A DNA stretch of 64,000 nucleotides from an uncultured Acidobacteriota bacterium (GTDB lineage Bacteria; Acidobacteriota; Vicinamibacteria; Vicinamibacterales; UBA2999), in assembly GCA_963772065.1 (NCBI GenBank), contig CAVYVZ010000007.1, positions 212,249-276,248 of the forward strand, read 5' to 3'. The notes under the pieces are model-generated. The model was not told the origin of the DNA and did not search any database. It saw only the letters and a list, made by a program, of their open reading frames with translations. The translations under genes and the position numbers were made by a program. Shown in pieces: positions 7,565-44,130 of the stretch (position 1 is the first letter of the stretch; the number at the start of each line of letters is the position of its first letter).

Positions 7565-7668
7565 GACTCGTAGTCCGTAGTCCGTGGTCCGTCAGATCGC
7601 GAAGAACGAAGGACAAGTGATTTGACGAACTACGGTCTACGGACTACGGACAACGGGTACGAGTGTCC
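7565..7668. repeat. Periodic-stem palindrome, unit GTAGTCC (left arm 7569-7593, right arm 7625-7651, outer pairing to 7668)
   Basis: Left arm is cgtagtccgtagtccgtggtccgtc. The reverse complement of the right arm is gtccgtagtccgtagaccgtagttcgtc. Thirteen consecutive matches are followed by scattered mismatches. The right arm encodes the last codons and the stop of the minus-strand gene 7630..8025. Confidence 0.85.
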
Positions 7669-8025
7669 GCAGGACGCCGCGAGGTGACGCATCGACGAGG
7701 CGCGCATCTCGCCGTCATGGACGGAGCCGGTCATCGAGACGCGGTGCCCGACGTGATCCTTCAGCTTCAGCTTCTTCGACGCGTCGACGATGTCGAGGTC
7801 GCTGTTTCTCTTGCGGATGAAGCCCGTCTTCCAGCTCCGCTCCTTCGGCGCCTGGGCGCCGTTCGTCTCCCTCAGCCGGTATGCCGCGTCATCGCGCTCC
7901 AGACAGCCAGAGACGGTCACCGGCGTCGCCACGGCCGCCTTCTCCTTGGCCTTGGCGCTGGCGCCAGCAACCACGGTCGCGTTGACGGCGCAGACGACGA
8001 TCGCAGCGATGGTATTGAAACGCAT
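7630..8025 (-). CDS. Small secreted protein of unknown function
   Basis: ORF track 7630..8040. The likely start is the internal M (MRFNTIAAIVVCAVNATVVAGASA, a signal peptide). The C-terminal SVVRRP-stop is encoded by the palindrome arm. Confidence 0.6.
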   Translation of the reverse strand: MRFNTIAAIVVCAVNATVVAGASAKAKEKAAVATPVTVSGCLERDDAAYRLRETNGAQAPKERSWKTGFIRKRNSDLDIVDASKKLKLKDHVGHRVSMTGSVHDGEMRASSMRHLAASCGHSYPLSVVRRP

Positions 8026-8109
8026 GCAGCCTTCCTCCACACCGGGAGGGGCAAATGGAGTGCCCGGATTGCAAAGCTGCTAAGTAGCTGCAAATCTGGC
8101 ACGTTGACG

Positions 8110-8134
8110 CGGCCCGCCGGGCGCCGGCGGGCCG
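8110..8134 (-). terminator. GC-rich hairpin about 30 nt downstream of the serine-hydrolase gene (putative intrinsic terminator without a clear U-tract)
   Basis: cggcccgccgg-gcg-ccggcgggccg forms a perfect 11-bp stem with a 3-nt loop. No strong U-run follows on the minus strand, so termination activity is only inferred. Confidence 0.35.
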
Positions 8135-8163
8135 GTGCGCTATCAGTTTTGTAATCGAAGTAA

Positions 8164-13880: not shown

Positions 13881-15279
13881 CTATTTGGCGGCTGTGCGCT
13901 CGGCGTTCGTCCCTTCCTGGCGCTGGTCCAGCCCATACGGGTCGTCGAAGTAGGTCACCGAGCCATCTTCCTCGACCCATGCGGTCCAGTAGCCGATATG
14001 GACGGGAATCGGTTTTCTCAGCTTCACAGCCTGCTCGTGCTTGCTGTTCATGGCCACGCGTATGCGCTCAGGCGTCCACTGCGCCTTGTCCTGCAGCACG
14101 TACTCCGCGAGCGCAACGGGGTTCTCTATGCGAATGCAGCCGTGGCTGAACGTCCGCTTCTCCTTGTTGAAGAGCGAATCGGTTGGCGTGTCATGGAGGT
14201 ACACGTTGAAGTGGTTGGGGAAGATGAATTTGACGAGCCCCAGGGCGTTCTCCTCTCCGGGCGCCTGACGGAAGCGGAGTCCTTCTGTTGTGTCGACGTC
14301 ACTCCAGTCCACGCCCGACGCGTCGAGAATCTCACCCGAGGTATCGACGACCTCGATGTTGTTCCGCGACAGATAGTCGGGATCGTCCACGAGCCTGGGG
14401 AGCGTCTCCTCGCGAAGAATCGATTCGGGGATGTTCCAGTACGGACTGAAGACGATGTACGTCATCTCGTCGCTGAAGAGCGGCGTCGGCGTGTCGGTAG
14501 CACCCACGATCACGCGCATGGCGAGTGCCGGCCTGCCCCCGTCGATGACCTGCATCGCATAGTTCGGCACGTTGATCAGCACGTACCGATCGCCGAGCTC
14601 ACGCGGCGCCCAGCGCCAGCGCTCGAGGTTCATCGAGATTTTTGCGATGTCGAGACTCTCGCCCGCTCCCTTGCGCGCCCGTGCAAGCGCGGCCTGCAGC
14701 CCCTTGTACCTGAGGATGCGACGGGGCGATCGCGTCGAGCGTCTCCCGTACTTTGTTGCCTTTGAGCGCGTCGCGAAGATGCTGGAGCAGGTCCGCCCTC
14801 TTCGGCGATGGGAGCCAGTTGCGGTCGACCTCACGCGGCGACGATCGCCATCCAAGCAGATCGGCGGCGTGCGTGAGGAACGCATAGGTGAGCCGCAGAT
14901 CGGTTTCTGGAATCACATCGGGGTCGAACGAGGCGCCGAACCACGCGCGTTCATCGGCCTTCGCGAGCGCGGCCGCCAGTGCGTCATATCCATAGCCGGC
15001 CGGTTCGAGCCCGTGCACCTCGGCATCACGAATCGCCCCAAGGAGCGACTCGAGCTGCGGTGTTGGATCGTCGCCCTCAATCCACGCCGGCACGTACTGA
15101 CGCTCGGCATAGAACTTCTGCTCGAGCGCCCACAGGCGCCTGCCGGCCGCATCGCGATGAACCCACCGTGGAACGGACGACGCCGATTTCTTCAGGGCAC
15201 CCGCGAACTGTTGGCTGTCCTTCTCCCCGCACGCAATCGACACAACCAGGGCCAGCGCAACTGCAAGGGTCCGTTTCAC
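13881..15279 (-). CDS. L,D-transpeptidase (YcbB/YkuD type); frame break near 14709
   Basis: ORF 14599..15279 is the N-terminal half (lipoprotein-like MKRTLAVALALVVSIAC). ORF 13881..14885 is the C-terminal half, with the YkuD catalytic SHGCIR. Removing one G from cagGtac restores ..APSHPQYKGLQAALA.. Confidence 0.85.
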
Positions 15280-15338
15280 GCGAAGAGGTAGTGCAAGCTG
15301 AATACCGCGTCTTGTTATCTGTTTGCGAAGGAGGCGCG

Positions 15339-15440
15339 ATGGAAGAGAGGAACCGCAGTCAGTCGGGGCGCTCGACGGATCGTGACGAGGGCATCCCCGA
15401 GTCCGGCCGCCTTGACGACGACCAGATGAGCGAGCGCTAG
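15339..15440 (+). CDS. Possible 33-aa highly charged micro-ORF
   Basis: ATG at 15339 is preceded by AAGGAGG, 4 nt upstream. Product is MEERNRSQSGRSTDRDEGIPESGRLDDDQMSER. Its stop overlaps the stop of the convergent 72-aa gene (CTAG). There is no homology support. Confidence 0.25.
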   Translation: MEERNRSQSGRSTDRDEGIPESGRLDDDQMSER

Positions 15441-15655
15441 GCGCACTTGCGGAGGTGACGCATCGTCTGCTTCACCTCCCAGCCCGCGGCAAGTGTGTAC
15501 ACCACTGCGTTGGTCCTGAGATGGCGCTCGCGGCGGAAGCACCAGGCGGCGATGTTGTAAGCGGCCATCACCACGGCGATCGCACAGGCGGCTCCGTGCA
15601 CGCCACCTTTGACGACCTCCTGGTTTCCGCTGTGGCAAAACTGTTCGACCGTCAA
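15437..15655 (-). CDS. 72-aa predicted membrane protein, unknown family
   Basis: ORF track. TTG start is preceded by GGAGG, 5 nt upstream. Hydrophobic segment GGVHGAACAIAVVMAAYNIAAWCF. Third codon positions are GC-rich. Confidence 0.55.
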   Translation of the reverse strand: MTVEQFCHSGNQEVVKGGVHGAACAIAVVMAAYNIAAWCFRRERHLRTNAVVYTLAAGWEVKQTMRHLRKCA

Positions 15656-15730
15656 GCAGCCCTCCTGGGCACGGGCGAGCAGAGCAAGAGCAAATGAAAT
15701 GCCACAGCGCTATGGTGCGAGAACGGGCAA

Positions 15731-16517: not shown

Positions 16518-16533
16518 GGGTCAATTCTAGGCT

Positions 16534-16714
16534 GTAGGCGGTTGGCGGTAGGCGGTAGTTGGCGGTAGGCGGTAGGTTGCCGGTAGGCGGTAGGTGCCGG
16601 TAGGCGGTAGGTGCCGGTAGGCGGTAGGTGCCGGTAGGCGGTAGTTGCCGGTAGGCGGTAGTTGCCGGCAGGCGGTAGGTTCGTTCGTCCGACGGCCTAC
16701 CGCCTACCGCCTAC
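16534..16714. repeat. Eight tandem copies of a 17-18 nt unit (GCCGGTAGGCGGTAGGT) followed by a complementary arm (cctaccgcctaccgcctac, 16696-16714)
   Basis: Read directly from the sequence. There are eight full units plus a partial one. The units are built from the heptamers GGTAGGC and GGTAGKT. The right arm overlaps the stop codon of the permease gene (16711). The element lies upstream of the FRG gene. Confidence 0.9.
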
Positions 16715-19203
16715 TCGTAGCGCAATGCCAGCATCGGGTCCACGCGCGTCGCGCGCCGCGCAGGCACGTAGCCGGCCAGCATGGCGACGCCGCTCAGCAA
16801 CGTCGACGCGAGGACGAACGTCGCCGGATCCGTGGGCGACAGCCCGTACAACTGCGACTCGACGAAGCGGCTGAGGCCGATGGCCACTGGCAGGCCGATC
16901 ACGATACCGACCGAGAGCATCACGGCGACCTCACGCAGCACCATCCACAGCACGGAGCCGCGCGCGGCACCGAGGGCCATGCGAATGCCAATCTCGCGCG
17001 TGCGGCGCGAGACGGTGTACGACATCACACCGTAGAGCCCGACGGCGGCCAGCACGGTGGCCAGCCCGCCGAACAGCATCGACAACGCCGCAACCAGCCG
17101 CTCGATGAACAGCGACTCGTCCACCTGCGCTTCCATCGTCTTCATGTTGAAGATTGGCAGGTTCGGGTCGAGGCGCTGAGCGACCTGTCGCGCGGATGCC
17201 GGCACGCCGCCGGCGTCGGGGTGCGATCGGACGTAGAACGTCATCTGATCGAGCGCTTCTTCCTGCATGTACGGCACGTACACGAACCGCGGGATCTCGT
17301 CGCGCATCGTGGTGAACTTCGAGTCGCGAACGACGCCGACCACCTCGATCGTGTTGTCGTTGTCGTCGCGTCCGAAGCCAAACCTGCGGCCGATCGGGTT
17401 CTGAGTTCCCCAGAAATACTTCGCCATCGTCTCATTGATGATCGCGACGCGCGGTGCGCCGAGGGCATCGGTCTCGCGGAACTCGCGTCCGAGCACGAGC
17501 GGCATCCCCAGCGTCGAGAAGTAACCGGGCGCCACGGCGTTGAAGGTCGGGTTCATGTCCTCGCCTTCCTTGCGAGTGTATCCCTGCACCTGCACGGTCG
17601 AACGCCATTCCGAGTCGGCCATCGCGGGTAGGACGGCCGCGGATGCCGCGGTGACGCCGGGCAGCGCGGCGAGCTGATCGTGGAGCTGGCGGAACAATGC
17701 GGCGCTCCGCTCGCGCGCGTACCCGCTCAACGCCGGATCCACGGAGAACTGCAGCAGGTCCTCGGCCACGAACCCCGGGTTGAGGCTGCGAAGGTTGTAC
17801 AGGCTTCGCGTGAAGAGGCCCGCGCCCGCGAGGAGCAGCACCGACAACGCCACCTGCGCGACGACGAGCCCTTTGCGGAAGCGGGCCTGCCCGCCGGCGA
17901 CGGCGCCCGCACCTTCCTTCAACGCCCCCGTCAGCGACGGCTTGGTCGCCTGGAATGCGGGCGCAAGGCCGAACAGCGTGGCCGTGATCGCGGAAATCGC
18001 AATCGCAAAGAGCACGACACGTAGATCGGGATCCGACGAGAGGTTCTGCACCGCGCGATCGAACGGGAGCGTGTCGATCAAGACGCTGGTCGTCCACCAG
18101 GCGAACAGCACGCCGACGATCGCACCGCCGAGCGCGAGCACGAAGCTCTCGGTGAGCCGCGTGCGCACGACGCGCCAGCGGCCGGCGCCGAGCGCCAGCC
18201 GGATCGCCACTTCCTTCTGCTGCCCCGCCGCTCGCGCGAGCAGCAGGTTGGCGACGTTCGCGCAGGCAATCAGCAGGACGAGACCCACCATCGCCATCAG
18301 CACGACGAGCGGTGTCGAGAACTCCGTGCGCAGGTCCGAGCGTCCCTGATGGCCGGGAAGGACGAGCAGGGTCTTGGCGAGAAAGCGCTTGCGGATGTTC
18401 TCGGGCATGCTCGCGCGGAGCGTCTTCGCGTCCTCCTGCAGCTGCTGGCGGTAGACGACGTTCATCGCCGCGCCTGCCTGCTCCATCGTCACGCCGGGCC
18501 TTCGGCGCCCCATGATGGTGACCCACCGGCTGCGCCACGTGTCGAGGTCGTTCCAGGTGGGCGTGAGCTGCGCCTTCATCATGATCGGCACGAAGAGATC
18601 CGCCGGCGAACCGGCGTCGAGGCCGCTGAAGCCGCGCGCGGCGACGCCGACGACCGTCATCGGATGATTGTTGATGCGGATCTCCTGGTTGAGGACGTTC
18701 GTCTGGCCGCCAAAGCGCCGCTGCCAGTAGCCATGGCTGAGCACCACGACCGGGTGACCGCTCGGCGTGCGGTCGTCTTCCGCGCCGAGCGTGCGGCCGA
18801 CGACAGATCCAACGCCGAGGACATTGAAGTAGTGGCCCGTGACGAGCTCGACGAACACACGCTCCGAGCGCGTGCCGGTGGTGAGCGTCGCGCTCGTGTC
18901 GTAGCGCGCGAGCATCCCGGTCATCACGTCACGCGACCCGTGCTCGAGGCCGCGAAACATCGGCACGGAGAACGTCATGTTGTTGTTGGTCCGCCCCGAG
19001 AACGGTCCGGGGCCGTCGAAGAGCACCAGCTCCTCCGGCGCGCGGACGGGGAGGGTCCGCAACAGCACTTGATCCATCAACGAGAAAATCGCGGTGTTGG
19101 CGCCAATGCCGAGGCCGAGCGTGAGGATGATGATCACGGAGAACGCTGGCGCGCGGCGAAGCGACCGGAGGGCGAATCGAAAGTCCTGACGCAGCTGGTC
19201 CAT
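16711..19203 (-). CDS. ADOP-family duplicated ABC permease (two MacB-like periplasmic core / FtsX halves)
   Basis: ORF track, 830 aa. N-terminus is MDQLRQDFRFALRSLRRAPAFSVIIILTLGLGIGANTAIFS. A second FtsX-type half sits at the C-terminus. Confidence 0.9.
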   Translation of the reverse strand: MDQLRQDFRFALRSLRRAPAFSVIIILTLGLGIGANTAIFSLMDQVLLRTLPVRAPEELVLFDGPGPFSGRTNNNMTFSVPMFRGLEHGSRDVMTGMLARYDTSATLTTGTRSERVFVELVTGHYFNVLGVGSVVGRTLGAEDDRTPSGHPVVVLSHGYWQRRFGGQTNVLNQEIRINNHPMTVVGVAARGFSGLDAGSPADLFVPIMMKAQLTPTWNDLDTWRSRWVTIMGRRRPGVTMEQAGAAMNVVYRQQLQEDAKTLRASMPENIRKRFLAKTLLVLPGHQGRSDLRTEFSTPLVVLMAMVGLVLLIACANVANLLLARAAGQQKEVAIRLALGAGRWRVVRTRLTESFVLALGGAIVGVLFAWWTTSVLIDTLPFDRAVQNLSSDPDLRVVLFAIAISAITATLFGLAPAFQATKPSLTGALKEGAGAVAGGQARFRKGLVVAQVALSVLLLAGAGLFTRSLYNLRSLNPGFVAEDLLQFSVDPALSGYARERSAALFRQLHDQLAALPGVTAASAAVLPAMADSEWRSTVQVQGYTRKEGEDMNPTFNAVAPGYFSTLGMPLVLGREFRETDALGAPRVAIINETMAKYFWGTQNPIGRRFGFGRDDNDNTIEVVGVVRDSKFTTMRDEIPRFVYVPYMQEEALDQMTFYVRSHPDAGGVPASARQVAQRLDPNLPIFNMKTMEAQVDESLFIERLVAALSMLFGGLATVLAAVGLYGVMSYTVSRRTREIGIRMALGAARGSVLWMVLREVAVMLSVGIVIGLPVAIGLSRFVESQLYGLSPTDPATFVLASTLLSGVAMLAGYVPARRATRVDPMLALRYE

Positions 19204-19256: not shown

Positions 19257-20057
19257 TTACGCCTTGCGATAACGCGATGCGGCGCGGCGATTCATGGCAT
19301 AGACCACGCGCTGAGGCAGCAGCCGCGACAGCGTCGCGATCGCCGCGTTTACTCGGCCAGGCACGAACGTGGGGCGGCCATCCATCACGGCCTCGTAGCC
19401 CTGCTGCGCCACGGCCTGGGCGTTCATCCACATGAACGAGGGCATGCGGCTGACGATCTGGCGTGTGCCGCTGACGTCGTGGAACTCGGTAAACGTGAAC
19501 CCCGGACACACCGCCGTGACGTGAACGCCATGCTGCGCGGTTTCCGTAGAGAGCGACTCGGAGAACCTGATGAGGAACGACTTCGTGGCCGCGTACAGCG
19601 TGTGGCCGGCGACACCCGGCAGCAATCCGGCCAGCGATGCAACGTTGACGATGCGGCCGTAGCCGCGATCGAGCATCGCAGGCAGCAAGCGATGGGTCAG
19701 CTCGACGACTGCGATGAGCATGACCTGCAGGAACTCGGCATGCCGCGGCCAGTCGCTCTTCACAAACGATCCGGGCACTGCGAACCCGGCGTTGTTGACG
19801 AGCGCGTCGATGAGGATCCCCTCCGCGGTCAGCTGGTCGCACAGTCGGGCGGACGCGTCAGGACGCGCCAGGTCCGACGCGATCACGTGAACCCGCCCGC
19901 CGTGCCGCTGCTCGAGGGACGCGGCGAGCGCGCGAAGCCGATCGTCACGGCGGGCGACGACGACCAGGTCGAAGCCGTTGGCCGCAAATTCTTCGGCGAA
20001 GGCCTGGCCGATGCCAGCCGAGGCTCCGGTGATCAGTGCGGTTCGACGCTGGCTCAT
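19257..20057 (-). CDS. SDR-family oxidoreductase
   Basis: The internal start MSQRRTALITGASAGIGQ is at 20057 and overlaps the upstream stop (ATGA). TGxxxGxG and YAATK (YxxxK) motifs. The ORF-track entry 19257..20447 is over-extended. Confidence 0.85.
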   Translation of the reverse strand: MSQRRTALITGASAGIGQAFAEEFAANGFDLVVVARRDDRLRALAASLEQRHGGRVHVIASDLARPDASARLCDQLTAEGILIDALVNNAGFAVPGSFVKSDWPRHAEFLQVMLIAVVELTHRLLPAMLDRGYGRIVNVASLAGLLPGVAGHTLYAATKSFLIRFSESLSTETAQHGVHVTAVCPGFTFTEFHDVSGTRQIVSRMPSFMWMNAQAVAQQGYEAVMDGRPTFVPGRVNAAIATLSRLLPQRVVYAMNRRAASRYRKA

Positions 20058-20662
20058 CGCTTCGCCACAGGGATCACGAACTTCTCGGCCGTGTGCGTGT
20101 CGGAGAACCGCGCGACCTTCACATCGACAAGGCCGGCAGCCTTGCCCGCCCGCATCACGTCCGCTTCGGTAATGGCCTGCGCACCCTTCGGCCTGATCAC
20201 CCAGATCGCGCCGGCTCGCTTCAGATGCTTCTGCAGCGGCACGAGCTTGTCCAGCGCCGCTCGCGATGCGGCGGCGTAGAAGATCACGTCCGCCTGACCC
20301 GAGGCTTTCGTCGTCACTCGCGCGCCGCGGTGCGCGAGCTCGCCGGCGAACTCCGCATCGTCGACGCCGAGCACGAGCACCTCGTGCGACGGCTTCACGC
20401 CGAGCTTGTCGAGACGACTCGGCGGATTCAAAATCTTCGACGCCCACTTCGGAGCCGCGTCGCCGATGGCGAACACCGCCACGCCGTCAGGGAACGTCAC
20501 CCGCAGCGCGCCCGCTTTCGCTTCGACCTTGGACATCTGTTTGTACGGCACCGACAGGCGAACGTCGCCCCCGCGAAAAATCAGCCCGTCCGTCTCGAGC
20601 AGCGCCTTGCCTTCTGCGCGCGTCTTGCCGAAGGTCAACGTGCATTTCGCTTCCGCTCCCAT
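20054..20662 (-). CDS. DUF3052-like protein with an N-terminal PH-like extension
   Basis: ORF track, 202 aa. The C-terminal pattern LGVKPSHEVLVLG..GAIWVIRPKG..ITEADV..AGLVDVKV matches my recollection of DUF3052. Confidence 0.7.
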   Translation of the reverse strand: MGAEAKCTLTFGKTRAEGKALLETDGLIFRGGDVRLSVPYKQMSKVEAKAGALRVTFPDGVAVFAIGDAAPKWASKILNPPSRLDKLGVKPSHEVLVLGVDDAEFAGELAHRGARVTTKASGQADVIFYAAASRAALDKLVPLQKHLKRAGAIWVIRPKGAQAITEADVMRAGKAAGLVDVKVARFSDTHTAEKFVIPVAKR

Positions 20663-20667: not shown

Positions 20668-20710
20668 TTCTTCCTTTTCCTTTTTCCTTTTTCCTTTTTC
20701 CTTTTCCTTG
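20668..20710 (-). repeat. Homopurine (mRNA-sense) tract made of GGAAAA(A) repeats, filling the rlmI-DUF3052 intercistronic spacer
   Basis: Minus-strand reading is TAA-caaggaaaaggaaaaaggaaaaaggaaaaaggaaaaggaagaacgagc-ATG. There is no complementary arm nearby. Confidence 0.85.
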
Positions 20711-21883: not shown

Positions 21884-21925
21884 GGCTTAAGGCGTTAAGG
21901 CCTTACGGCCTGAAGACCTTAAGCC
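21884..21925. repeat. Hairpin ggcttaaggcgttaaggcc-ttac-ggcctgaagaccttaagcc (unit CTTAAGG) in the rlmI/glyA divergent region
   Basis: Read directly. The arms are 19 nt with about 3 mismatches. It shares GGCTTAAGG with the element at 34147..34177. Confidence 0.7.
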
Positions 21926-21955: not shown

Positions 21956-23227
21956 ATGGCCGATGTGATGCTTTCGCTCATCCAGCGCACGCTCGCCGAG
22001 TCCGACCCCGAGATCGCGAAGGCGATCGCCAGCGAGGTGCGCCGGCAGGCGGACGGCCTCGAGCTGATCGCATCCGAGAACTTCGTCAGCAACGCGATCC
22101 TCGAAGCGGCCGGCTCGGTCTTGACGAACAAGTACGCCGAGGGGTACCCGGGCAAGCGGTACTACGGCGGCTGCGAGTTCGTCGACATCGCCGAATCGCT
22201 TGCCATCTCGCGCGCGAAGACGCTCTTCGGCGCCGACCACGCGAACGTCCAGCCGCACTCGGGCGCGCAAGCCAACATGGCGGTCTACTTGACGCTCCTC
22301 AAGCCGGGCGACAAGGTGCTCGGCATGAACCTGGCCCACGGCGGCCACCTCACACACGGCCATCCGCTGAATTTCTCCGGCAAGCTCTACACGATCGTTC
22401 CCTACGGCGTGCGGCAGGACGACGAGCGGATCGACTACGACGAGTTGGAGCGGCTGGCCGACGAGCACAAGCCGGGCATGATCATGGTCGGCGCGAGCGC
22501 CTATCCGCGGGTGATCGACTTCGAGCGGATCGCGCGCGTGGCGAAGCGCATCGGCGCGCCGATGGTGGTCGACATGGCGCACATCGCCGGACTCGTGGCC
22601 GCCGGCGTGCACCCGAGTCCCGTGCCGCACGCGGAATTCGTCACCACCACGACGCACAAGACGCTGCGCGGCCCGCGCGCGGGCCTCGTGCTCTGCCGCG
22701 AGCAGTTTGCGAAAGACCTCGACCGCACGGTGTTTCCCGGCGTGCAGGGCGGTCCGCTGATGCACATCATCGCGGCCAAGGCGGTCTGCTTCAAGGAAGC
22801 GATGGAGCCCGCATTCGCCGAGTATCAGCGCCAGATTGCCGCCAACGCGAAGCGGCTCGCCGCGTCAATCAGCAGCCACGGGTTCCGTCTGGTGAGCGGC
22901 GGCACCGACAACCACCTCATGCTCGTGGACGTCTTCAGCAAGGGGATCACCGGCAAGGTCGCCGAGGCGGCGCTCGGCAAGGCCGCGATCACCGTCAACA
23001 AGAATGCGATCCCGTTCGACAAGAATCCGCCGATGGTGGCGAGCGGCATTCGCCTGGGAACGCCCGCAGTGACGACGCGCGGCATGCGCGAGCCGGAGAT
23101 GGATCAGATCGGCGAGCTCATCGCACGCGTCCTCGCCGCGCCGGACGACGACCGCGTCATTGGCATGGTCAAGGCGGACGTCGAGCGACTCTGCCGGAGA
23201 TTTCCGCTGTACCCCGATAAACAATAG
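21956..23227 (+). CDS. glyA: Serine hydroxymethyltransferase
   Basis: ORF track, 423 aa. [23 protein letters not shown] and the PLP-lysine motif [12 protein letters not shown]. Confidence 0.97.
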
Positions 23228-23334
23228 CGGTTCGTCGGTTCGCGGGTTCGACGGTTCGCGGGTTCCACGGTTCGTGAGATCGCTAGTGGGTCGGCGAACT
23301 GACGAACCCACGAACTGACGAACCCACGAACCGC
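23227..23334. repeat. Periodic-stem palindrome, 8-nt unit (C/G)GGTTCG(N), filling the whole convergent intergenic spacer
   Basis: The left arm has six units (cggttcgt cggttcgc gggttcga cggttcgc gggttcca cggttcgt). The right arm has five complementary units (cgaactga cgaaccca cgaactga cgaaccca cgaaccgc). The outermost pairing TAGCGGTTCG/CGAACCGCTA includes both stop codons. Confidence 0.9.
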
Positions 23335-24339
23335 TATGGTCTCGTTGCCGTGATGTTGCGCTTCGGGACCTGGCCGACCGGGAATCCTCGCAATTTCCTT
23401 GCGCGTCGCGATGTCCACCGCGGACACCGAGTTGGAGCCGGCGTTCGCGACGTAGACGCGCGTGCTGTCCGGCGTGAACGTCAGCCAGTCGGGATGATCG
23501 CCCACGTGCACGCCGCCGAGGAGCTTCAGGTCGGGCAGCGAGTAGCCGTAGATGTGGCTGTTGATCTTGCTGCACGCCCACAGCGTCTTGTTGTCGGGCG
23601 CGACGCCAATGCCGTGCGACGGTGATCCCTGAAGCGTGTCCAGATGGCGCTGCTCGGGCGGCACGTCCGGCAGCGTGATTCGTGACACCTCTTTCCGCTG
23701 CCCGAAATCCACGACGGCGAATCCGTGGAACAGCGAGATCTGGACGAACATCCGCTTCGTCGAGCCGTCGGGGTTCCTCTCGAAGGCGATCGGCCGTACG
23801 CCATCGTTGAACGACATCGTCCACAGCGGTTCCTCCGTCGTCGCATCGATGACCGTGAGATTCTTCCCGACGATCGAACCGGCGACGACATGCTTGCCGT
23901 CCGGTGTCATGAAGGTGTTGTGAATGCCGCCGGGCGTCGGGATCGTCTTTGCCTTCTTCACCGACGCCGTGTCGATCACATCGACCGCGCCAGGCGCCGA
24001 GACGATCGCCACATACACGCGGCGCCCGTCGAGGCTCACGGCCAGATTGTTCGGACGCCCGCTCAACGGAATCGAATTCGTGACCTTGAGGGTCTTGCCG
24101 TCGACCACGTCGAGCGTGTGATTCGCTTCGTTGGTGAAGTAGTAGCGGCTGCCGTCGGGCGCCGCGGCGGCGCCATGGTTCACTTCGATCCCCTTGATTT
24201 CGGCGACGACCGTGTTCGTGGCCGGATCGATGAGGTGGATGTTGTCGCCGGCCGCGTTGGTCTGCATGATGATCACGCGCCCACTGCTTGCCGTCAGCGG
24301 GAGCACCAGGAGAAAAGTCGCAGCGAGAGCGCGCGTCAT
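23334..24339 (-). CDS. Secreted YVTN/lactonase-type beta-propeller repeat protein; frame break near 23378-23382
   Basis: ORF 23104..24339 gives MTRALAATFLLVLPLTASS and then the propeller repeats. Removing one G from cccGgtc restores ..ARIPVGQVPKRNITATRP-stop at 23334. Otherwise the ORF reads through the palindrome. Confidence 0.8.
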
Positions 24340-28097: not shown

Positions 28098-28245
28098 CTC
28101 GTGACTTCGCCTGTCACGAGCCACGAAGCCACGAAGATGCGTTCGACTGCGGCCTGCGAAGCGAGCCGCCCTCGGCGGCTCAGTCGAACGCATTCTGACC
28201 GCAATGATTCTTCGTGCCCTTCGTGATCTTCGTGGCCTTCGTGGT
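28098..28245. repeat. Multi-branched structured element with CACGAAG / CTTCGTG periodic arms
   Basis: Nested pairings read directly from the sequence: ctcgtgac/gtcacgag (28098-28120); ccacgaagccacgaag (28121-28136) against four cttcgtg units (28210-28244); atgcgttcgact/agtcgaacgcat (a perfect 12 bp); and gagccgcc/ggcggctc (a perfect 8 bp). Confidence 0.8.
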
Positions 28246-28778: not shown

Positions 28779-29314
28779 CGACAGCCGGCGGCCCAGTTGA
28801 TGAACGCCGACTGCGGCTGGATATCGCAGTCGAACCAGTTGTACGCCGTCATTCGGCCGGCGACGATGATGCCTGCCCACAGGACGAGGGACGCGATCGC
28901 GGCGACCCTGGCGCCTCGCGGCGGCACAGCCTGCAGGTCCCACGCCGCGACGGTGGGCCTGACCCGCGTGTGGAAGATCCACACGTTCAGCCCGGCGAGG
29001 ATCAGCATCGCGACCTTCAGCCTGAAAAAGATGCTGTGATACGTCCTCACGGGAATGGCGAAGAACAGCAGCGCCCCGGTGACGACCATGATGGCGAAGC
29101 CCGCCCTCGTCCATGGCAGGAGGCGTCGAATGACCTCCGATGCCGGCACCTGTCGCATGGTCAGGCCGAGCAGCCGCAGATCGAGCATCACGGCCGTGCC
29201 GACGAAGAGGCACAGCGTCAGCACATGCGTCGACTCCACGAGGGGATACATGTACTGGGACTCGTGAAGCGCAATGCTGGCGCGCGTGCTCGCGAGCCAC
29301 TGCACGAAGGTCAC
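28775..29314 (-). CDS. Four-TM membrane protein of unknown function (DUF6644-like by recollection)
   Basis: ORF track, 179 aa. The GTG start overlaps the stop of the PQQ gene (GTGA). Motif is ..HESQYMYPLVESTHVLTLCLFVG..DLRLLG.. Confidence 0.7.
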   Translation of the reverse strand: MTFVQWLASTRASIALHESQYMYPLVESTHVLTLCLFVGTAVMLDLRLLGLTMRQVPASEVIRRLLPWTRAGFAIMVVTGALLFFAIPVRTYHSIFFRLKVAMLILAGLNVWIFHTRVRPTVAAWDLQAVPPRGARVAAIASLVLWAGIIVAGRMTAYNWFDCDIQPQSAFINWAAGCR

Positions 29315-31114
29315 TTCCTCACCTCGAACGCCAGAAGCACGTTCCCGGGCTTGCCCAGGAACTGACCGTAGCCGGAGTTCGTGAACACCATCCCATCGAC
29401 CGCCACCGGCCCAGCGGCATCGATGGAGCCTCCATTGGCCTTGACGCGATTGACTGTCTCGAACTCGCGTGCGGTGTCGAAGGCCCAGACGATGCTGCCG
29501 TCGCGTGTCGAGTAGGCGCGTAGATGACCGTCCAGCGAGCCGGCGAAGACCACGCCCGGAATGACCGTGATGGCTGCGGACTGCGCGCCCACGCAGCCCC
29601 GTCCGCCGCTGCAGCTCAGTGGAGGCGCGGGCGCGTGCCAGACCTGTTCGCCGGTGGCGATGCGCAGGGCAAAGAGGCCGCGCGGTGTCGCGCCGCGTTC
29701 GAGGACGTCGGACACCGGAACGTAGACATGTTCGTCATCGGACGCAATGCCCCATTCGATTCCGCCGAGGAGCCCACCTTTGCCGGCCCGGAACTGCCAC
29801 ACGACTGATCCTTCCTTGTCAGGATCCAGTCCGTACACCACACCTGACTTCTGCGCGACCACCAGCAGACTTCGGCCGGCAGACGTCCGGCGGAGGATCG
29901 GTGAGCTGCCGAAGTCGAAGTCGGGGCCAACCTCTTTCGGGCAGTTCGGGTTGTCGTCGCGGCAGTTCACGACGAAGACGTCGTTGGGCGTGAGCTGTCG
30001 TATCCAGCGGATGCTCCCGGTATCCACGTCGAGCGCGAGGATTGCGTCGCTCGTCCTCGTCGCCGGCTCCGAGTACGCGTTGCCGGTTCCGATGTAGAGG
30101 GTCCGGCGCGCAGCGTCGATGGTCGGCGCCGTCCACGTGGCCGCCCCCGACGGGCCGTGAAGCTGCGTACCGGTCGGCGTCTTTCGGGTCGGACGCGCGG
30201 GCTCGGCGAATCGTGTGCGTCTGCCAAATGACCGCGCCCGTTGCCGTATCGATCGCGGCCACGCTGCCGCGGAACGTGCAGCACTCGTACCCCGCCTTCG
30301 CGCCCGCGCCCTCCTCCCACGAGGACACCGGCACGTACAAGCGGTTGCCGTGCAACGCGGGCGCGCCCGTGATGCGCGCGGATTCGTGCGAATCGAGCCT
30401 CCGGGTCCAGAGGGGCGCACCCGTCGACGCGTCGAGCGCGTGGACCGTCGCGGCCAGGTCGCCGAAGAACACGGCGTACCTCGGCGGCGCCGCGCCGGAA
30501 ATCGAGCCGATGCTGATCGCCGTGCGGACGCCGGCCGGCGCCGTGTACGACCAGTGAACGCAGCCGCGCCGGGCATCGAGCGAATACACCACTCCGGGAG
30601 CGCTGCCGACGAACACCCGGCCGGCGGCAACCGCGGGCTGCGCGTACGCGACGGTCGCGCCGGGGAACCCGAAGGCCCACTTCAAGGCCAGCTTCGGCAC
30701 ATCGGCGGCGTCGAGGCCCGCCTGTTTCTGGAAGCGGCTGTTCTCCGCGTCGAGGCCCCACCCACTCCAGCGAGGCCCCCCGGTCGGATCGCGCAAAGGC
30801 GCCGCCTCGCACAGCGGGGGCTGCCCCGCGCCCGCGCCGCGCTTTGCCGGCGTCCCCAGCATGTCGGCGATGGCCCGCTTGTCCGCCGCGCTCAGTCCTC
30901 GCGCCTGAACCGCCATCGTGCCGGCGATCATCACGGCAAGGATGTCCTCGGGCGTCTTCAGCTGGAGCGTCTGGCGATCGGGCGCGCGCACCTCCGAGCC
31001 GTCATGGCAGGCAGCGCAATTCGCCTTGTAGAGGGCGGCCGGATCGCTTTGAGCCAGCGCGGATGCGGACGACAGAACGGCCGCGGCAACGGCGGTCGAG
31101 AAAAGGGTCTTCAT
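29311..31114 (-). CDS. Secreted PQQ-like beta-propeller protein with an N-terminal c-type cytochrome domain; frame break near 30208
   Basis: ATG at 31114 gives MKTLFSTAVAAAVLSSASALA, then CAACH, then propeller repeats with a vicinal CC (GYECCTFRGS). It continues in the phase of ORF 29311..30630 (..AEPARPTRKTPTGTQLHGPSGAATW..). Confidence 0.8.
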
Positions 31115-31165
31115 GCGTTGTCCGTGACACGCGAATCCTGCGCCGGACGACGGTAAACTGGCAAG

Positions 31166-33133
31166 GTGAATCTCCCCGCCGCGCCGGCTGATGCGCTGAA
31201 GATCGCCGTCGGTGCTGCATTCTCCGATACCGGCGCCCTCGCCCGTGCGGTGAATGGCTACGAGCCCCGAGCGGGGCAGCGCGCGATGGCGGAGGCGGTC
31301 GCATCGGTGATCGAGTCTGGCGGGACCTTGCTCGTCGAGGCAGGCACCGGGACGGGCAAGACGCTCGCGTATCTGATCCCGGCCATTCTCAGCGGCCGCC
31401 GCGTACTTGTCTCCACCGGAACGAAGAACCTGCAGGAGCAGATCTTCTTCAAGGATCTTCCGGCCCTGCGGAACGCGCTTGGACCTTCCGTTCACCGCCA
31501 CGCTGATGAAAGGCCGGTCCAATTACCTCTGTCTCCACCGCTTCGAGCAGGTACAAGATGACCGAAGCGCCCGACACATTTCTTCTGCCGATGCTCGAGG
31601 ACTGGGCGAAGGAGACGCAGACCGGCGATCGCGCGGAGCTCCGCGACCTCCCTGAAGATCTGCCGCTCTGGAAAGAGATCGCGGCGACCGCGGAAACCTG
31701 TCTCGGCGCGGAGTGCCCGCAGTTCGACACCTGCTTCGTCACCCGCATGCGCCAGCGCGCCGCCGAGTCCGACGTCGTCATCGTCAACCACCATTTGCTG
31801 TGTGCCGACGCGTCCATCCGGCAGAGCGCCTACGGCGAAGTGATTCCGAGCTGCCCGACCCTCGTGGTCGACGAGGCGCACCAGCTCGAGGACGTGGCGA
31901 CGCAGGACTTCGGCGTGGCAGTCAGCAACTACCGAGTGGATGACTTGGTGCGCGATGCCGACAGCGTAGGGCGGGCCTTTGCGGCCCGCCAAGCCGACGA
32001 GGTGGCCCGCGATCTCGAACGCATCGCCGATCGCGCCCGCATATTCTTCGCTGGCCTGCAGCTCGCGCCGCGCAAGGAGGATCGCGCTCGTTACACCGCA
32101 GAATCAATCTCGGAGTTCTTCCAGGATGGCATGATGCTCGTCGGAGCGCTCGACGGGCTGGAGGCCACACTGGCGCTGGCGCTCAAGCGTCCCGCCGAAC
32201 CCGGGGCGATCAGCGAAGCCAACGAAGATGCCGAAGCGCTCATGCGGCGCGCCGGGAGAGATCCGCGACGACCTGAAGCTCCTGCTTCGCGCGAGCGATC
32301 CAGACTTCGTCTACTACCTCGAGATGCGAGCCCGGGGGGTGTTCCTCCGGGCGGCCCCGATCGACGTCTCCCGGATCGTGCAGGATGCGCTGTTCAACCG
32401 CATGCGCGCCATCGTGCTCACCTCCGCCACGCTCGCCGTGGACGGATCGTTCGAGTACGTCCGCGGGCGCCTCGGCATCAGGCACCCCGAGGAGCTCCGC
32501 GTCGCATCGGAGTTCGACTACGCCAGCCAGGCGATTCTGTACCTGCCGCGTCGAATGCCGCCGCCACGCAACCCGAGGTTCGCCGAGTCGGTGGCCCGTG
32601 AAGTGATCGAGATCCTCAAGCGGACCGAAGGCCGCGCATTCGTCCTCTTCACGAGCTACTCGGTGCTGCACATCGTGCAGCAGTTCGTCGAGATGGCGGT
32701 CCCGTATCCGGTCTTCGTCCAGGGGACCCTCCCGCGATCGGCGCTCATCGAGCAGTTTCGGCGCACGTCGAATGCGGTCCTTCTCGCCACTTCGAGCTTC
32801 TGGCAGGGTGTCGACGTCGTCGGGGAAGCACTGAGCTGCGTCATCATCGACAAGCTGCCGTTCGCGTCGCCTTCCGACCCGGTCACGGGGGCACGCATCG
32901 AGGCGATTACGGCGCGCGGCGGCGACGCATTCAGCGAGTATCAGGTTCCGCTCGCGATCCTCACGCTTCAGCAGGGGCTCGGGCGTCTCATCCGCCACCG
33001 GCACGATCGGGGCGTGCTTGCCGTGCTCGATCCCAGGCTTCGGACCATGGGATACGGCCGCCGGTTCCTGGATTCGCTGCCGCCGGCGCCCGTCACCAGC
33101 GACATCCGCGATATCGACCAGTTCTTCCAGTAA
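31166..33133 (+). CDS. dinG: DinG/XPD-like ATP-dependent DNA helicase; three frame breaks (about 31483-31490, 31545-31565, 32254-32256)
   Basis: The protein is pieced from ORFs 31166, 31407, 31558 and 32228. Walker A EAGTGTGKT. DEAH box (VVDEAHQL). Cys cluster (NYLCLH..CLGAECPQFDTCF). C-terminal helicase motifs (ATSSFWQGVDV..LQQGLGRLIR). Confidence 0.85.
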
Positions 33134-33196
33134 GATGAACTGCAGGCGGAGCCAGTTCGCGACGTCAGCTCAGCTTTACAAATACGGAGGAGTCAT

Positions 33197-35481: not shown

Positions 35482-35748
35482 ATGGACAGCGTGATTCTGA
35501 CCATTCGCGTGATCCCGCGGGCCGGTCGATCCGGACCCGCGGGCATCCGCGACCATGCCTTCCTGATTCGCCTCAACGCCCCGCCTGTCGAAGGCGCCGC
35601 CAACGCCGAGTTGATCGACGTCCTGGCGGACCTGCTCGACGTGCCGAAGCGCAACGTCACGATCGTCAGCGGCGAACGCAGCCGCCTGAAGCGCGTGCGA
35701 ATAATCGGCATTACGCTCGAACGCGCGCGCGCGATTCTCCATTCCTGA
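35482..35748 (+). CDS. yggU: DUF167 (YggU) family protein
   Basis: The internal ATG gives MDSVILTIRVIPRAGRSG..V.APPVEGAANAELIDVLADLL. The ORF-track start at 35440 lies inside the hairpin. Confidence 0.8.
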   Translation: MDSVILTIRVIPRAGRSGPAGIRDHAFLIRLNAPPVEGAANAELIDVLADLLDVPKRNVTIVSGERSRLKRVRIIGITLERARAILHS

Positions 35749-35817
35749 ACCACGAAAACACGAAAATCACGAAAACATCACAAACAGATTCGTGTCTTTC
35801 GTGCGTTTCGTGGTTTC
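35747..35817. repeat. Periodic-stem hairpin, unit CACGAAAA / TTTCGTG
   Basis: Left arm is gaaccacgaaaacacgaaaatcacgaaaac. Right arm is ttcgtgtctttcgtgcgtttcgtggtttc. It begins within the yggU stop codon. Confidence 0.8.
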
Positions 35818-35840: not shown

Positions 35841-37098
35841 ATGAGACCCTCTGCGGATTTCGTCATCGACAACGCGGCGCTCATCGCGACCTGCGCGGGC
35901 GCCGCTCCGCGGCGCGGCCCCGCTCAGCACGACATCTCGCCCGTTCGACAGGCCTCGGTCGCGTCCGCCGGAGGCCGCATCGTGTACGTCGGACCGGCGG
36001 CCGGACTCGCTCGCGCCGTCGACGTCGCGGCGGATGCGCTTCGCGTGGACGCACGCGGCCGCGTCGTCGTGCCCGGCTTCGTCGACGCGCACACGCACGT
36101 CGTGTTCGCCGGCGATCGCCGGCAGGAGCTCCAGCGCCGGCTGGCGGGCGCGACCTATGCGGAGATTGCCGCCGACGGCGGGGGCATCCTGCGGACGGTG
36201 GAGGCGACGCGGCGCGCCTCGGAAGACGAGCTCGTCGCTGCCACGCGCGCGAGGCTCGACGAGATGCTGGCCTGCGGCACGACAACCGCGGAAGCCAAGA
36301 GCGGCTACGGCCTGACCACGGACTCCGAGCTGCAGCAGCTTCGCGTCATCCGGCGGCTCGATGCGGAACATGGCATCGACCTGGTCCCGACGTTCATGGG
36401 CGCGCACGACGTGCCCGTCGAATACCGCGCCAGGCGCGGCGCGTACGTCTCGCTGGTCATCAACGAGATGATCCCCCGGGTGCAGCGCGAGCGCCTCGCC
36501 GAGTGGTGCGACGTGTTCTGCGAGGACGGCGTCTTCACCCCCGACGAATCGGTCGCGATTCTGAAAGCGGGGGCCAGGGCGGGACTGAAGCCTCGCATCC
36601 ACGCCGACGAGCTCGGCCCGAGCGGCGGATCGCGTGTCGCCGCCCGCGTCGCGGCGCGGTCCGCGGATCATCTTCTCTTCGTCGACGAGGAAGGCGCCGA
36701 TGCGATGGCTGCGGCCGGCGTGTGCGCGACGCTCCTCCCCTCGGCGGCGTTCTATCTGAAGATCGGCCGCTTCGCGCCGGCGCGGATGCTCGATCGAGCG
36801 GGGCGTGCCGGTGGCGCTCGCCACCGATGTCAACCCGGGCGGTGGCTTCTCGCCGTCGATGCCGTTCGCGATCACGCTCGCCTGTTTCGCGATGCGGCTG
36901 ACGATCGAGGAAGCGCTCGTGGCGGCGACGATCAACGCCGCGTGGTCGGTGGACCGGGCCGACCGCGTGGGGAGCCTCGAAGTCGGCAAGCTGATGGATG
37001 CCGTCATCCTCGACGGCGAGCTGGTCGATCTCATTCGCGTCGGCGCGCCGGCGATCCGTCACGTCATCAAAGCCGGACGCATCGTTCACACCCGCTGA
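35841..37098 (+). CDS. hutI: Imidazolonepropionase; frame break in the G-run at 36800-36803
   Basis: The first part of ORF 35841..37751 (PGFVDAHTHVVFAG..KSGYGL..RIHADEL) joins to ORF 36805..37098 (VPVALATDVNPG..). Deleting one G from gcgggg restores RMLDRAGVPVALATD. Confidence 0.88.
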
Positions 37099-37124
37099 AG
37101 GTATTAGCCGACTACAATCGCGGG

Positions 37125-37751
37125 ATGCCGACGCTCACGACGATGGCTCTCGCGGACCTGCTGGATGCGTTTGCGTCGAACGATCCCGTGCCAGGAGGCG
37201 GATCCGCATCCGCCGTCACCGGCGCCCTCGGCGTCTCGCTGCTGCTGATGGTGGCGGGAATGCAGAGGACACGATCGGGCACGCCTGAAGAAACCGCGGA
37301 CCTCGCGGAGGCGGCCGCGCGTCTGCGGCCGCTGCGCGACCGGTTGGCGACGCTCGCCGACGAGGACAGCGACGCCTACGCGACGGTCGCGGCGGCATTC
37401 AAGCTGCCCAAGGGATCGGACGAAGAGAAGGCGGCGCGTCGAGCCGCGATTCAAGCGGCCGGCCGCCGGGCCACCGACGTGCCGCTCGAGACGATGCGGG
37501 TGTGCCGCGATGCGCTGCGCCATTCGGTGATCGTGGCGCGCAACGGCAATCGCAACGCCACGAGCGACGTCGGCGTCGCGGTGGAGCTCCTGCTCGCCGG
37601 CCTCAAGGGCGCGGCCCTCAACGTCGACATCAACCTCGCCGGCCTGTCGGATCAGCCGTACGTGGAGCGCGCGCGATGGGAACGTCAGGACCTGGAGTTG
37701 ACGGGTGCCGATGAAGCGGGCCGGGCGCGCGGGCTACTGAATAGTGCCTGA
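37125..37751 (+). CDS. Formiminotetrahydrofolate cyclodeaminase-like (FTCD_C) protein
   Basis: ATG at 37125 gives MPTLTTMALADLLDAFASNDPVPGGGSASAVTGALGVSLLLMV. This is the last third of ORF 35841..37751. Confidence 0.8.
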   Translation: MPTLTTMALADLLDAFASNDPVPGGGSASAVTGALGVSLLLMVAGMQRTRSGTPEETADLAEAAARLRPLRDRLATLADEDSDAYATVAAAFKLPKGSDEEKAARRAAIQAAGRRATDVPLETMRVCRDALRHSVIVARNGNRNATSDVGVAVELLLAGLKGAALNVDINLAGLSDQPYVERARWERQDLELTGADEAGRARGLLNSA

Positions 37752-38090: not shown

Positions 38091-38836
38091 CAGTGAATCT
38101 GGTGCAGTAGCCGGTCCCAGCGCGTCCTGGTGAAGAAGTGTGCAACCGTCGAGAAGACACCCCCCACCTGATCGCCGAGATCGGTCCGCTGATAATCTTC
38201 TCGGTCAGCCTCGTAGGACCAATAGACCATCAGCGCCTTTCCTTTGATGTAGCTCCGGGGCAGGAAGCCCCAGTACCGGCTGTCTTGCGAGTTGTCGCGG
38301 TTGTCTCCCATCGCGAAATAGTGGTCGGCCGGCACGGTAACCGGACCGTACCGCCGCCGCACGTCGAAGTCGGTGTGGTCGGCGTCCCCGGGCTGGCTGT
38401 CGTCCGGCGGCTCGAGAAAATGGACGTATGGCTCGTCGAGGGGCCGTCCGTTTATGAACACCCGCTTGTTGCGCAGCTCGATGGTCTCGCCGGGCAGCCC
38501 GATGATCCGCTTGATGAAGTCCCGTTCCGGCTCCTCGGGGTACTTGAAGACCACGACGTCTTGCCGCCGGATCGGTTCGATCGGCAGCAGCGTCTGCTCG
38601 AGGCCGGTCATCGTCGGGCCGAAGATGAATTTGTTGACGAGCAGATGATCGCCGATGAGCAGGTTGTTCTCCATCGACCCGGTCGGAATCTTGAACGCCT
38701 GCACCACGAACGTGCGGATGAAGAGCGCCAGGATGACGGCGATGACGATGGATTCGAAGTACTCACGCGCCGTGGACTTCTTGAATCCCGGCTCCACGGC
38801 CGGTGATTCGGCGTCCGCAGCCTGCCTCGCCTTCAT
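38090..38836 (-). CDS. lepB: Signal peptidase I
   Basis: The internal start MKARQAAD is at 38836 (ATGA overlap with the lepA stop). Motifs [10 protein letters not shown] and [14 protein letters not shown]. Confidence 0.9.
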
Positions 38837-44127: not shown

Positions 44128-44130
44128 TTC

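Follow-up and report, generated by a model that had tools for sequence, protein, structure and literature searches.

The DNA analysed here (called the window below) is a stretch of 64,000 nucleotides (nt) from an uncultured Acidobacteriota bacterium (GenBank assembly GCA_963772065.1, contig CAVYVZ010000007.1, positions 212,249 to 276,248 of the forward strand), and the relatives of its glyA and YggS genes place the host in the order Vicinamibacterales. The subject is a set of repeats, all in intergenic spacers between ordinary housekeeping genes, in which units of 7-9 nt stand in tandem and, at most loci, face an array of the complementary units, so that the two arrays could pair as the arms of a hairpin. 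The archetype lies 3' of glyA, between this gene and a convergent one (the coordinates of all features are collected in Table 1). For its left arm, Tandem Repeats Finder gave 5.9 copies at period 8 and 2.9 copies at period 16 (93% matches); since each arm has its own 16-nt super-period and the arms are unlike at the spacer bases between the unit cores, the arms expanded independently. The RNA fold of the archetype was -66 kcal/mol, against -41 ± 3.5 kcal/mol in dinucleotide shuffles (z = -7, both strands). An initial annotation of the window had both convergent stop codons included in this element. That holds in the frame kept by homologues of the convergent gene, of which 51 of 51 terminate with ...IPVGQVPKRNIT(A)V(L)P and a stop, and whose frame leads to a TAG at the edge of the archetype; the formal open reading frame (ORF) of the window, in contrast, continues on the minus strand across the palindrome, owing to one G too many (a frameshift) in the run at 23380-23382.

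The architecture is real and non-random. Twelve loci of this architecture had been listed at the outset, and the description stands for most of them: nine of the eleven palindromes are strong hairpins with tandem arms of 7-9-nt units (z from -3 to -8), whereas two have for the most part a single arm and fold weakly, and the twelfth locus (20668) is armless, as had been said. With dinucleotide shuffles as the reference, z reached -5 to -8 on at least one strand for the elements at 7565, 16534, 21884, 28098, 35417, 35747 and 57531, and the fold at 34147 was small yet clear (z = -3.3 and -4.7). The elements at 52599 and 63701 are real tandem arrays with weak folds (z of -1.7 or weaker), and the former is essentially one-armed (the extents given in Table 1 for the elements listed at 16534, 35417 and 52599 begin at 16528, 35413 and 52596). 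The imperfect stems have 20-40 pairs and consist of helices of 5-11 bp, broken by mismatches of 1-2 nt at the variable spacer bases. A strict, ungapped detector that accepted only loci with two periodic arms, each of 16 nt or more and with a complementarity of 75% or more, found 7 loci in the window; in 20 dinucleotide shuffles it found 0-1 (mean 0.1). Per 100 kb, the window has 17.2 arrays of period 7 and 7.8 of period 8, and the corresponding densities in 1.29 Mb of diverse bacterial genomes are 2.6 and 0.5; that is, they are 7-15 times denser in the window. Among the 31 spacers surveyed, z of -4 or below was found only in these elements, apart from one plain GC hairpin (spacer 8041-8163). 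The same architecture, built from other units, was also met elsewhere above chance (11 strict matches against 0-1 in shuffles), in other Acidobacteriota, Thermoanaerobaculia, Verrucomicrobiota, Binatia and Rudaea. With Rfam 15 at the gathering score, the tRNA-Met of the window was matched and none of the elements was.

Of the convergent spacers (about 5), 3-4 hold an element, as do 8 of the approximately 17 co-directional ones and 1 of the 9 divergent ones. The elements usually start 0-6 nt from a stop codon, and the stop is often inside the first unit (TAG-GCTTAGG, TAG-GTTCGTG, TGA-ACCACGAAA, and CTA within GCCTAC); the elements at 34147 and 35413 span exactly from a stop to the next ATG. Coordinates and sequence thus bear out the earlier statement that the elements fill their spacers and take in the flanking stop and start codons. 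They resemble intrinsic terminators as stable stem-loops immediately after genes, convergent pairs included. They differ, as the initial annotation also had it, in lacking a T/U-tract and in having periodic stems; the stems are moreover very long and mismatched, and many of the elements stand inside operons and abut the next start codon. No T-tract follows the elements, and terminator-like sites with such a tract were not enriched (14 in 44001-64000, against 9.3 ± 3.5 in shuffles).

The loci had been described as differing in sequence. To judge from their units, they are instead members of few recurrent families, the units recurring across loci, related genomes and phage contigs (Table 1; comparison contigs are designated by L numbers). 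There are at least six families, from 25% to 67% GC and mostly without G-tracts, and they often combine a core of 6-7 nt with variable spacer bases. In the CACGAAA family the terminal helix (AACCACGAAA/TTTCGTGGTT) is fixed and the units typically number 3+3; its two loci in the window and two in L132 have only the cores and termini in common. Except for a GGGAGA type, no arrays of the window families were found in the 1.29 Mb of diverse genomes; among the elements compared, GGGA-type units are limited to the relative L137 (GGGAGAT) and some phage loci. A G-quadruplex explanation is ruled out by composition for most units. Several other accounts of the units were considered and set aside. That heptamers containing a stop would provide stop codons in all frames is true for GTAGTCC, CTTAAGG and TTTTGAT and fails for CACGAAA and GGTTCG, and is therefore not general; an origin of the unit from the 3' end of the gene itself was rejected because the same units recur at unrelated genes; and a Rho utilisation (rut) site was not supported, the arrays being A-rich with few pyrimidine-C dinucleotides. 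A likeness to integron attC sites (AAC...GTT ends, location after stops) was dropped as well: there is no integrase in the window, the core-site consensus fits the flanks poorly, and the module occurs in a phage tail operon.

Syntenic contigs were found via the beta-propeller protein and YggS; the closest genome (L001, glyA 83% identical) has another synteny and no elements, and was unusable for orthology. The GGTTCG array downstream of glyA is present in the window, L081 and L135. In L081 the convergent pair is kept, and an element of about 225 nt has a GTTCG/CGAAC core at period 9, about 17 units versus about 9, and unit variants in mirror order along both arms (the arm lengths are unequal there and at 16528); L135 has the left array only, after a deletion. 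When the 35747 element was compared between the window and L132, both with 3+3 CACGAAA units, 41 of 42 core positions were identical, against 14 of 31 non-core positions (Fisher p = 2e-7) and 72% of the yggS four-fold degenerate sites; in neither of the two are the variable spacer bases paired. In L132, the orthologue of the 28098 element is a plain CACGAAA hairpin (3+3 units) that measures 63 nt and has a 5-nt loop. The 34147 element is 31 nt long in the window, whereas its length is 83 nt in L139 and L140 (YggS 98% and 97% identical), and 51, 16 and 4 nt in more distant relatives, and L132 and L133 have an unrelated plain non-periodic GC hairpin in this spacer instead. Co-evolution of the arms had been proposed as a check, and it was seen at 35413, where TTGATTT/AAATCAA in the window corresponds to TTGATTC/GAATCA in L135, both arms having changed together; in this spacer L132 carries another family (GCAAGGC), and L134 and L137 have no spacer. 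The comparisons show that position, family and cores have long persisted, that units are gained and lost very fast, and that replacement or loss is occasional. Slippage probably drives the change in array length, and the suggestion that arrays grow in this way gains from the 31 and 83 nt of near-identical strains and from the separate 16-nt super-period of each archetype arm.

Phage contigs from IMG/VR were scanned for two of the families, and 91 stretches of (CACGAAA-n1-2)x3 and 38 of GGTTCGnn x3 were found. Contigs with a GC content of at least 0.48 hold 62 distinct CACGAAA instances, almost all of exactly three units, with a prefix AAC that is conserved in 77-95% and matches the terminal unit of the window. 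Most of them (49 of 62) are single-armed, an inverted arm being present in 13 of 62. In Vicinamibacterales chromosomes, AAC-(CACGAAA-nn)x3 takes the form of a 3+3 hairpin; in phage contigs it stands between genes, at more than 60 loci, as one arm on the sense strand. The module is polar to genes: on contigs with a GC content of at least 0.55, the end of a same-strand gene lies within 60 nt upstream in 25 of 45 cases and the end of an opposite-strand gene is adjacent in 6 of 45. Of the 25 upstream stops, 12 are TAA, often in the form TAA-C-CACGAAA. Contig L225 is a tailed-phage tail module (tape measure and tail assembly proteins) in which three sense-strand arrays fill stop-to-start spacers, and L229, a temperate phage, also carries the module. 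These loci show that at least one family works, or spreads, as a sequence module without needing a hairpin. A promoter for a phage RNA polymerase is an unlikely account, since a temperate phage and a tape-measure/tail operon are among the carriers and an ATG directly follows some arrays. Over the whole set of more than 60 loci (L142-L232), AAC-(CACGAAA-nn)x3 was observed right after stops and sometimes abutting the next ATG. A separate observation is the viral contig L227 (14 kb, GC 0.61), which has at least 12 kinds of arrays of 7-9-nt units in its spacers, e.g., AAATCTG, CACAGAGA, CCTCCGTG and AGGGACnnn; phages, too, can therefore have many families within a single genome.

A repetitive extragenic palindromic (REP) sequence is an imperfect palindrome of 20-40 nt with an unpaired GTAG or CGTC tag (PMC3733652). 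The elements resemble REPs, bacterial interspersed mosaic elements (BIMEs) and REP doublets forming hairpins (REPINs) in their intergenic location at gene ends, hairpin formation, several families per genome, long life in the lineage, clusters of direct and inverted copies, and the roles in mRNA stabilisation and termination that have been proposed. The repeat unit of a REP, however, is 20-40 nt and palindromic, whereas the unit here is 7-9 nt, is not itself a hairpin and has no unpaired tag, GTAG occurring only inside GTAGTCC and GGTAGGC units. A partner gene of the REP-associated tyrosine transposase (RAYT) type had been suggested as a check; no RAYT or Y1 transposase was found among the approximately 55 window genes, and only one RAYT in a survey of 1.66 Mb. 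Bona fide RAYT genes (NCBIfam NF047646, 96.5 bits) are present in the relatives L137 and L141 and in a third contig known from its gene map only, in the spacer where the window has the 35747 CACGAAA hairpin. What flanks those of L137 and L141 are classical GTAG REPs, 25-37 nt long (GTAGCGCGATGGC-TTCA-GCCATCGCG), and not short-unit elements; the lineage therefore has an ordinary REP/RAYT system, and the short-unit elements are something else. Their separation from REP and REPIN families, claimed at the outset, is in this way confirmed on the features tested. The cluster at the L141 RAYT, with four direct and three to four inverted copies, follows the same plan of units facing inverted units, but with a period of about 37 nt. 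In L096 and L110, downstream of the beta-propeller gene, a classical REP-like GTAGTGCGGACC-TTCA-GGTCCGCC stands where the window has the GGTTCG hairpin. Another observation was made in L137, where an 830-nt insertion (14901-15727), absent from L132 and L135, is bordered by some 9 copies of GGTTCCn at one end and some 14 of GGAACn at the other, i.e., units of the family at 52596-52639 of the window, and encloses two small ORFs on the minus strand, of 76 and 61 aa, that match no family. Such inverted arrays could act as terminal repeats, as in a MITE (miniature inverted-repeat transposable element); no target-site duplication or related transposase was seen.

Heptamer repeats comparable to these are the short tandemly repeated repetitive (STRR) sequences of cyanobacteria. 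The initial annotation knew of no described class with these properties, which was too strong, as the inverted arrays of Xanthomonas (PMC4692102) and heptanucleotide long simple sequence repeats (SSRs) precede it. The GGGAATC arrays of Xanthomonas form 70-75 convergent pairs per genome, are stem-loop-capable and are rare between divergent genes; their single or paired type is conserved between species while the length varies, and their function was left unresolved (Rehm et al. 2015, PMC4692102). They are alike in having tandem intergenic heptamers near stop and start codons and two same-unit arrays that are convergent and close together. They are unlike in having one dominant G-rich unit (GGGNATC) with G-quadruplex potential and a preference for four units, against at least six families of 7-9-nt units here, and in that inverted pairs, the rule here, account for about 40% of the Xanthomonas arrays. 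As summarised in PMC4679880, heptanucleotide long SSRs outnumber the other long-unit classes in many bacteria (Mrazek 2007), and an origin by polymerase slippage has been proposed (Mrazek 2007 via PMC4679880; PMC4060949). The work on long SSRs of 5-11-nt units (Mrazek et al. 2007; Huang and Mrazek 2014, PMC4060949) describes head-to-tail 7-9-nt repeats beyond chance, an intergenic bias, a scattered phylogenetic distribution and a proposed slippage origin, all as here, and copy-number differences between close strains were found here as well (34147); that work treats arrays singly, without inverted-pair hairpins, families across genomes and phages, or anchoring at stop codons. TAACTGA heptamers, common to Beggiatoaceae, cyanobacteria and Bacteroidetes (MacGregor 2015, PMC4679880), are alike as one heptamer across distant genomes, intergenic, polar to genes and with 2-6 copies per set, often beside a start codon, and a binding-protein role was suggested for them (PMC4679880); with 169 direct sets against 1 inverted and a location upstream of starts, they are unlike the elements here, which are mostly inverted pairs after stops. 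A literature search on such repeats in Vicinamibacteria or Acidobacteria, or on CACGAAA arrays, found nothing relevant. The class is a lineage-wide one, best filed among the poorly understood repeat arrays of heptamer type. Its nearest precedent is the inverted arrays of Xanthomonas, and it had been described only in part before.

Table 1. Positions of the repeat elements, their unit families and other features (window coordinates unless an L number is given)
Feature	Position	Strand	Basis or remark
Stop codon TAG of glyA (serine hydroxymethyltransferase, 21956-23227)	23225-23227	+	ORF and translation; base of archetype hairpin
Archetype left arm, about 6 units GGTTCGnn, 16-nt super-period GGTTCGACGGTTCGCG	23228-23274		Tandem Repeats Finder, inverted-repeat pairs
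Archetype centre, 20 nt, non-periodic, loop region	23275-23294		fold
Archetype right arm, about 5 units CGAAC(C)nn, own 16-nt super-period (100% matches)	23295-23333		Tandem Repeats Finder, inverted repeats, fold
CTA, i.e., TAG stop of the convergent gene in the conserved frame	23334-23336	-	ORFs, homologue comparison
Hairpin, heptamer arms GTAGTCC / GGACTAC	7565-7668		repeat and inverted-repeat search; z -7.6 / -5.3; convergent genes
Asymmetric element, left about 8 x 17 nt (GGTAGGC GGTAG..), right 3 x 7 nt GCCTACC	16528-16715		repeats, fold
Array without opposing arm, TTCCTTT on plus, AAAGGAA on sense (minus) strand	20668-20710		repeats; no fold
Hairpin, quasi-palindromic 8-nt units CTTAAGGC	21884-21925		repeats, fold; methyltransferase / glyA spacer
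Compound element	28098-28245		repeats, fold, L132 comparison; between convergent DUF6152 and DUF6644 genes
Small hairpin, units GCTTAGG / GCTCAAG	34147-34177		fold; exactly fills TPR-gene stop to yggS start
AT-rich hairpin, units TTTTGAT / AAATCAA	35413-35485		z -7.7; fills divIVA stop to yggU start
3+3 hairpin, CACGAAA / TTTCGTG units, terminal helix AACCACGAAA / TTTCGTGGTT	35747-35817		repeats, fold; begins within yggU TGA stop
Small array GACTACG x3 at RES-toxin gene stop	51918-51939		Tandem Repeats Finder; additional to the initial list
GGTTCCn array, about 4 units, about 1 opposing unit	52596-52639		z -1.7 / -0.4; between Xre-antitoxin and RES-toxin genes
Hairpin, units GGTTCGTG / CGAACCnn	57531-57627		z -6.8; starts at TAG stop of gene 56772-57533
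Weak element, AAAGTG(C) units	63701-63796		z -1.7; between tRNA-Met (63623-63695) and ATG at 63797
Family CACGAA[AG]	28098, 35747		also L132 (twice), L094, L113
Family GGTTCG	23227, 57531		also L081, L135, L129
Family GCTTAAG / GCAAGGC	21884, 34147		also L132, L134, L139, L140
Family GTAG[TG]CC	7565, 16534, 51918		also L091, L128
Family TTGATT	35417		also L135, L131
Family GGTTCC	52596		also L137
Phage tail-module arrays	L225 927-951, 4523-4547, 5792-5816	sense	
RAYT gene	L137 11547-12050	-	in yggU / amidohydrolase spacer
RAYT gene	L141 2098-2565		in yggU / amidohydrolase spacer
Helicase-to-TPR spacer	33134-33196; L132 7803-7867; L134 1173-1236; L135 5771-5834; L137 8988-9050		
Split or fused gene regions	23380-23382; 29311-31522; 31558-33133; 38833-40639; 40747-43558; 48696-51913; 35841-37751		

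Some details of the other elements are added here. The right arm of the 7565 element overlaps the 3' end of a minus-strand ORF (7630-8040), the 16528 element holds the stop of a MacB-type permease gene (16711-19203, minus strand), and the 57531 element lies upstream of mutS2. Gene 20054-20662 has the array at 20668-20710 immediately upstream of its start codon; this array reads (AAGGAAA)n on the sense (minus) strand and may serve as a string of Shine-Dalgarno-like sites. In the compound element, the outer arms CACGAAG/CTTCGTG are at 28115-28136 and 28209-28244, and a foreign non-periodic palindrome sits in the loop (28136-28194), of which no second copy was found within the 64-kb window; a GC-rich non-periodic palindrome nested in the loop of a periodic-arm hairpin was also observed in L128 (1560-1830). 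The pair of Xre-antitoxin and RES-toxin genes (51920-53081) has the GGTTCCn array between the genes and GACTACG x3 at the toxin stop. The sole strong non-periodic spacer hairpin, at approximately 8111-8133, is GGCCCGCCGG-CGC-CCGGCGGGCC, without a T-tract, downstream of a beta-lactamase-family gene. The spacer between the helicase and tetratricopeptide repeat (TPR) genes (GATGAATTGCAGGGCGGAGTTAGTTCGCG...GGAGGAGTCAT) is well conserved across relatives, has no repeat or strong fold, and may be a conserved promoter or leader. Several genes of the window are split over two frames and intact in relatives (beta-propeller, pyrroloquinoline quinone (PQQ) dehydrogenase, helicase, LepA, outer-membrane beta-barrel and sortilin/BNR genes), and an amidohydrolase and FTCD_C are fused in the window and are two genes in L132, L135 and L137; the frameshifts look like long-read homopolymer indel errors or pseudogenes.

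As to what the elements are, our tentative preference is for slippage-prone, family-structured gene-end repeats that fold as RNA hairpins without a U-tract. Arrays would grow and shrink by replication slippage, selection would keep the paired cores, and the inverted layout would be favoured by selection for folding of the transcript; the folded structure would serve, at 3' ends or between cistrons, as a stem-loop that lacks a U-tract, and could block 3' exonucleases or pause or terminate RNA polymerase, while the stop-to-start elements (34147, 35413) could couple downstream to upstream translation. A comparable role has been shown for REP/BIME hairpins in enterobacteria. Selection, or copying between the arms, appears to keep the arms complementary. 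Several points weigh against this reading. The strand asymmetry of folding, with G-U pairs, was used as a probe for RNA-level selection, and sense and antisense folds were about equally stable (sense better in 11 of 18 co-directional cases), so that there is no strand signature of such selection; the RNA role is one that we infer from position and thermodynamics only. The phage CACGAAA module is mostly single-armed, and this family therefore needs no hairpin; some arrays have no partner arm (20668, 52596, and those in L091, L128 and L086), and the 21884 element, alone among the elements, sits in a divergent spacer. The same junction in related genomes is often without any spacer, and the elements are therefore dispensable. 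The recurrence of the heptamers at unrelated loci, in genomes and in phages is more than selection for pairing can account for by itself, and it indicates that the units are also propagated or recognised as sequences.

The main rival, and a serious one, is a reading that the initial annotation had also offered: recognition could be the primary matter, with the arrays as multivalent binding sites for one or more sequence-specific protein or RNA factors on RNA, single-stranded DNA or double-stranded DNA and the hairpin potential as a side effect; bound arrays could be gene-end roadblocks, or platforms for proteins in 3' untranslated regions or between cistrons. Ribbon-helix-helix proteins bind direct and inverted repeats of 7-8 bp (omega repressor heptads, MetJ boxes, ParG sites), and the unit periods of 7-9 nt fit known cooperative protein arrays. 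The stereotyped, polar, mostly single-armed and nearly always three-unit phage module, its place in the stop-to-start spacers of a tail operon, and the invariance of cores across loci and genomes while spacer bases vary point the same way. We nevertheless consider this possible but doubtful, since six or more unit families in 64 kb would call for several factors or one very tolerant factor, no candidate factor gene was identified, and the host elements are mostly inverted (9 of 11) with arms that co-vary, so that either pairing matters or one arm is copied from the other; selection on base-pairing equally predicts conserved cores, because the cores are the paired positions. That CACGAAA-type units in particular might be the recognition arrays of an undescribed, sequence-specific system that marks gene ends, by a binding factor or a copying enzyme, is a speculation to which we give rather little credence. 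The hairpin and recognition readings are compatible, as the unit could be recognised or propagated and the inverted pair could fold.

The family structure and the occurrence in phages could alternatively point to non-autonomous, REPIN- or MITE-like mobile DNA, copied in trans by a Y1/RAYT-type or other transposase or carried by phages, with hairpins and gene-end sites reflecting the needs of the enzyme and the tolerated places of insertion. One family occupies several loci of one genome with a common terminal helix, the family was replaced in the 35413 spacer (TTGATTT in the window, GCAAGGC in L132), inverted GGTTCCn arrays edge the L137 insertion, foreign palindromes are nested in the loops at 28136-28194 and in L128, and the lineage has RAYT genes at the spacer that matches the 35747 element. 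Mobility is unlikely all the same, in that those RAYTs have classical REPs as their neighbours and are scarce (none in the window), orthologous elements are old and have kept their positions, no duplication of target sites was noticed, and copies at different loci are alike in cores and termini and not in spacer bases, which gives no sign of recent whole-element copying. Fast turnover of length, dispensability in relatives, the many different arrays of phages that replicate in such hosts (L227), and the over-representation of heptanucleotide long SSRs in many bacteria, for which a polymerase-footprint explanation was put forward (Mrazek 2007, as summarised in PMC4679880; PMC4692102), would suit a neutral by-product of a lineage-specific slippage bias for 7-9-nt units with template switching, tolerated only in spacers. 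This we regard as improbable: the cores (41 of 42) are far better kept than four-fold degenerate sites, many loci, genomes and phages have independently come to hold the same units, with a fixed three-unit module, the arrays persist in compact phage operons, and their pairing into hairpins is strongly non-random, so that a purely neutral origin fits the turnover and does not fit the conserved, recurrent cores. An assembly or sequencing artefact, which the many frameshifted window genes, suggestive of an error-prone long-read assembly, might bring to mind, is next to inconceivable; it is contradicted by independent metagenome assemblies from other samples, which carry the same families at the same spacers (L081, L132, L135, L139, L140).

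The elements are hazardous for assembly and gene calling, because ORFs run through them, and their strain-variable copy number could make them strain markers. Heptamer-type repeats have been a statistical oddity without a function since 2007, and this lineage makes function and mutational bias directly testable against each other, as it offers several families, orthologous series with fast turnover and a three-unit module common to phages. The sharing of the stereotyped module between host and phage is the most interesting lead; if CACGAAA-type units do mark gene ends, they would be a new class of cis-elements common to hosts and phages and distinct from REP/RAYT, intrinsic terminators and Shine-Dalgarno signals. 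Vicinamibacterales are abundant in soil, and we know of no account of how they end transcripts and balance the genes of operons. The repeats are almost the sole structured intergenic sequences in the window and, if they act on RNA, would likely be the main gene-end signal of the lineage.

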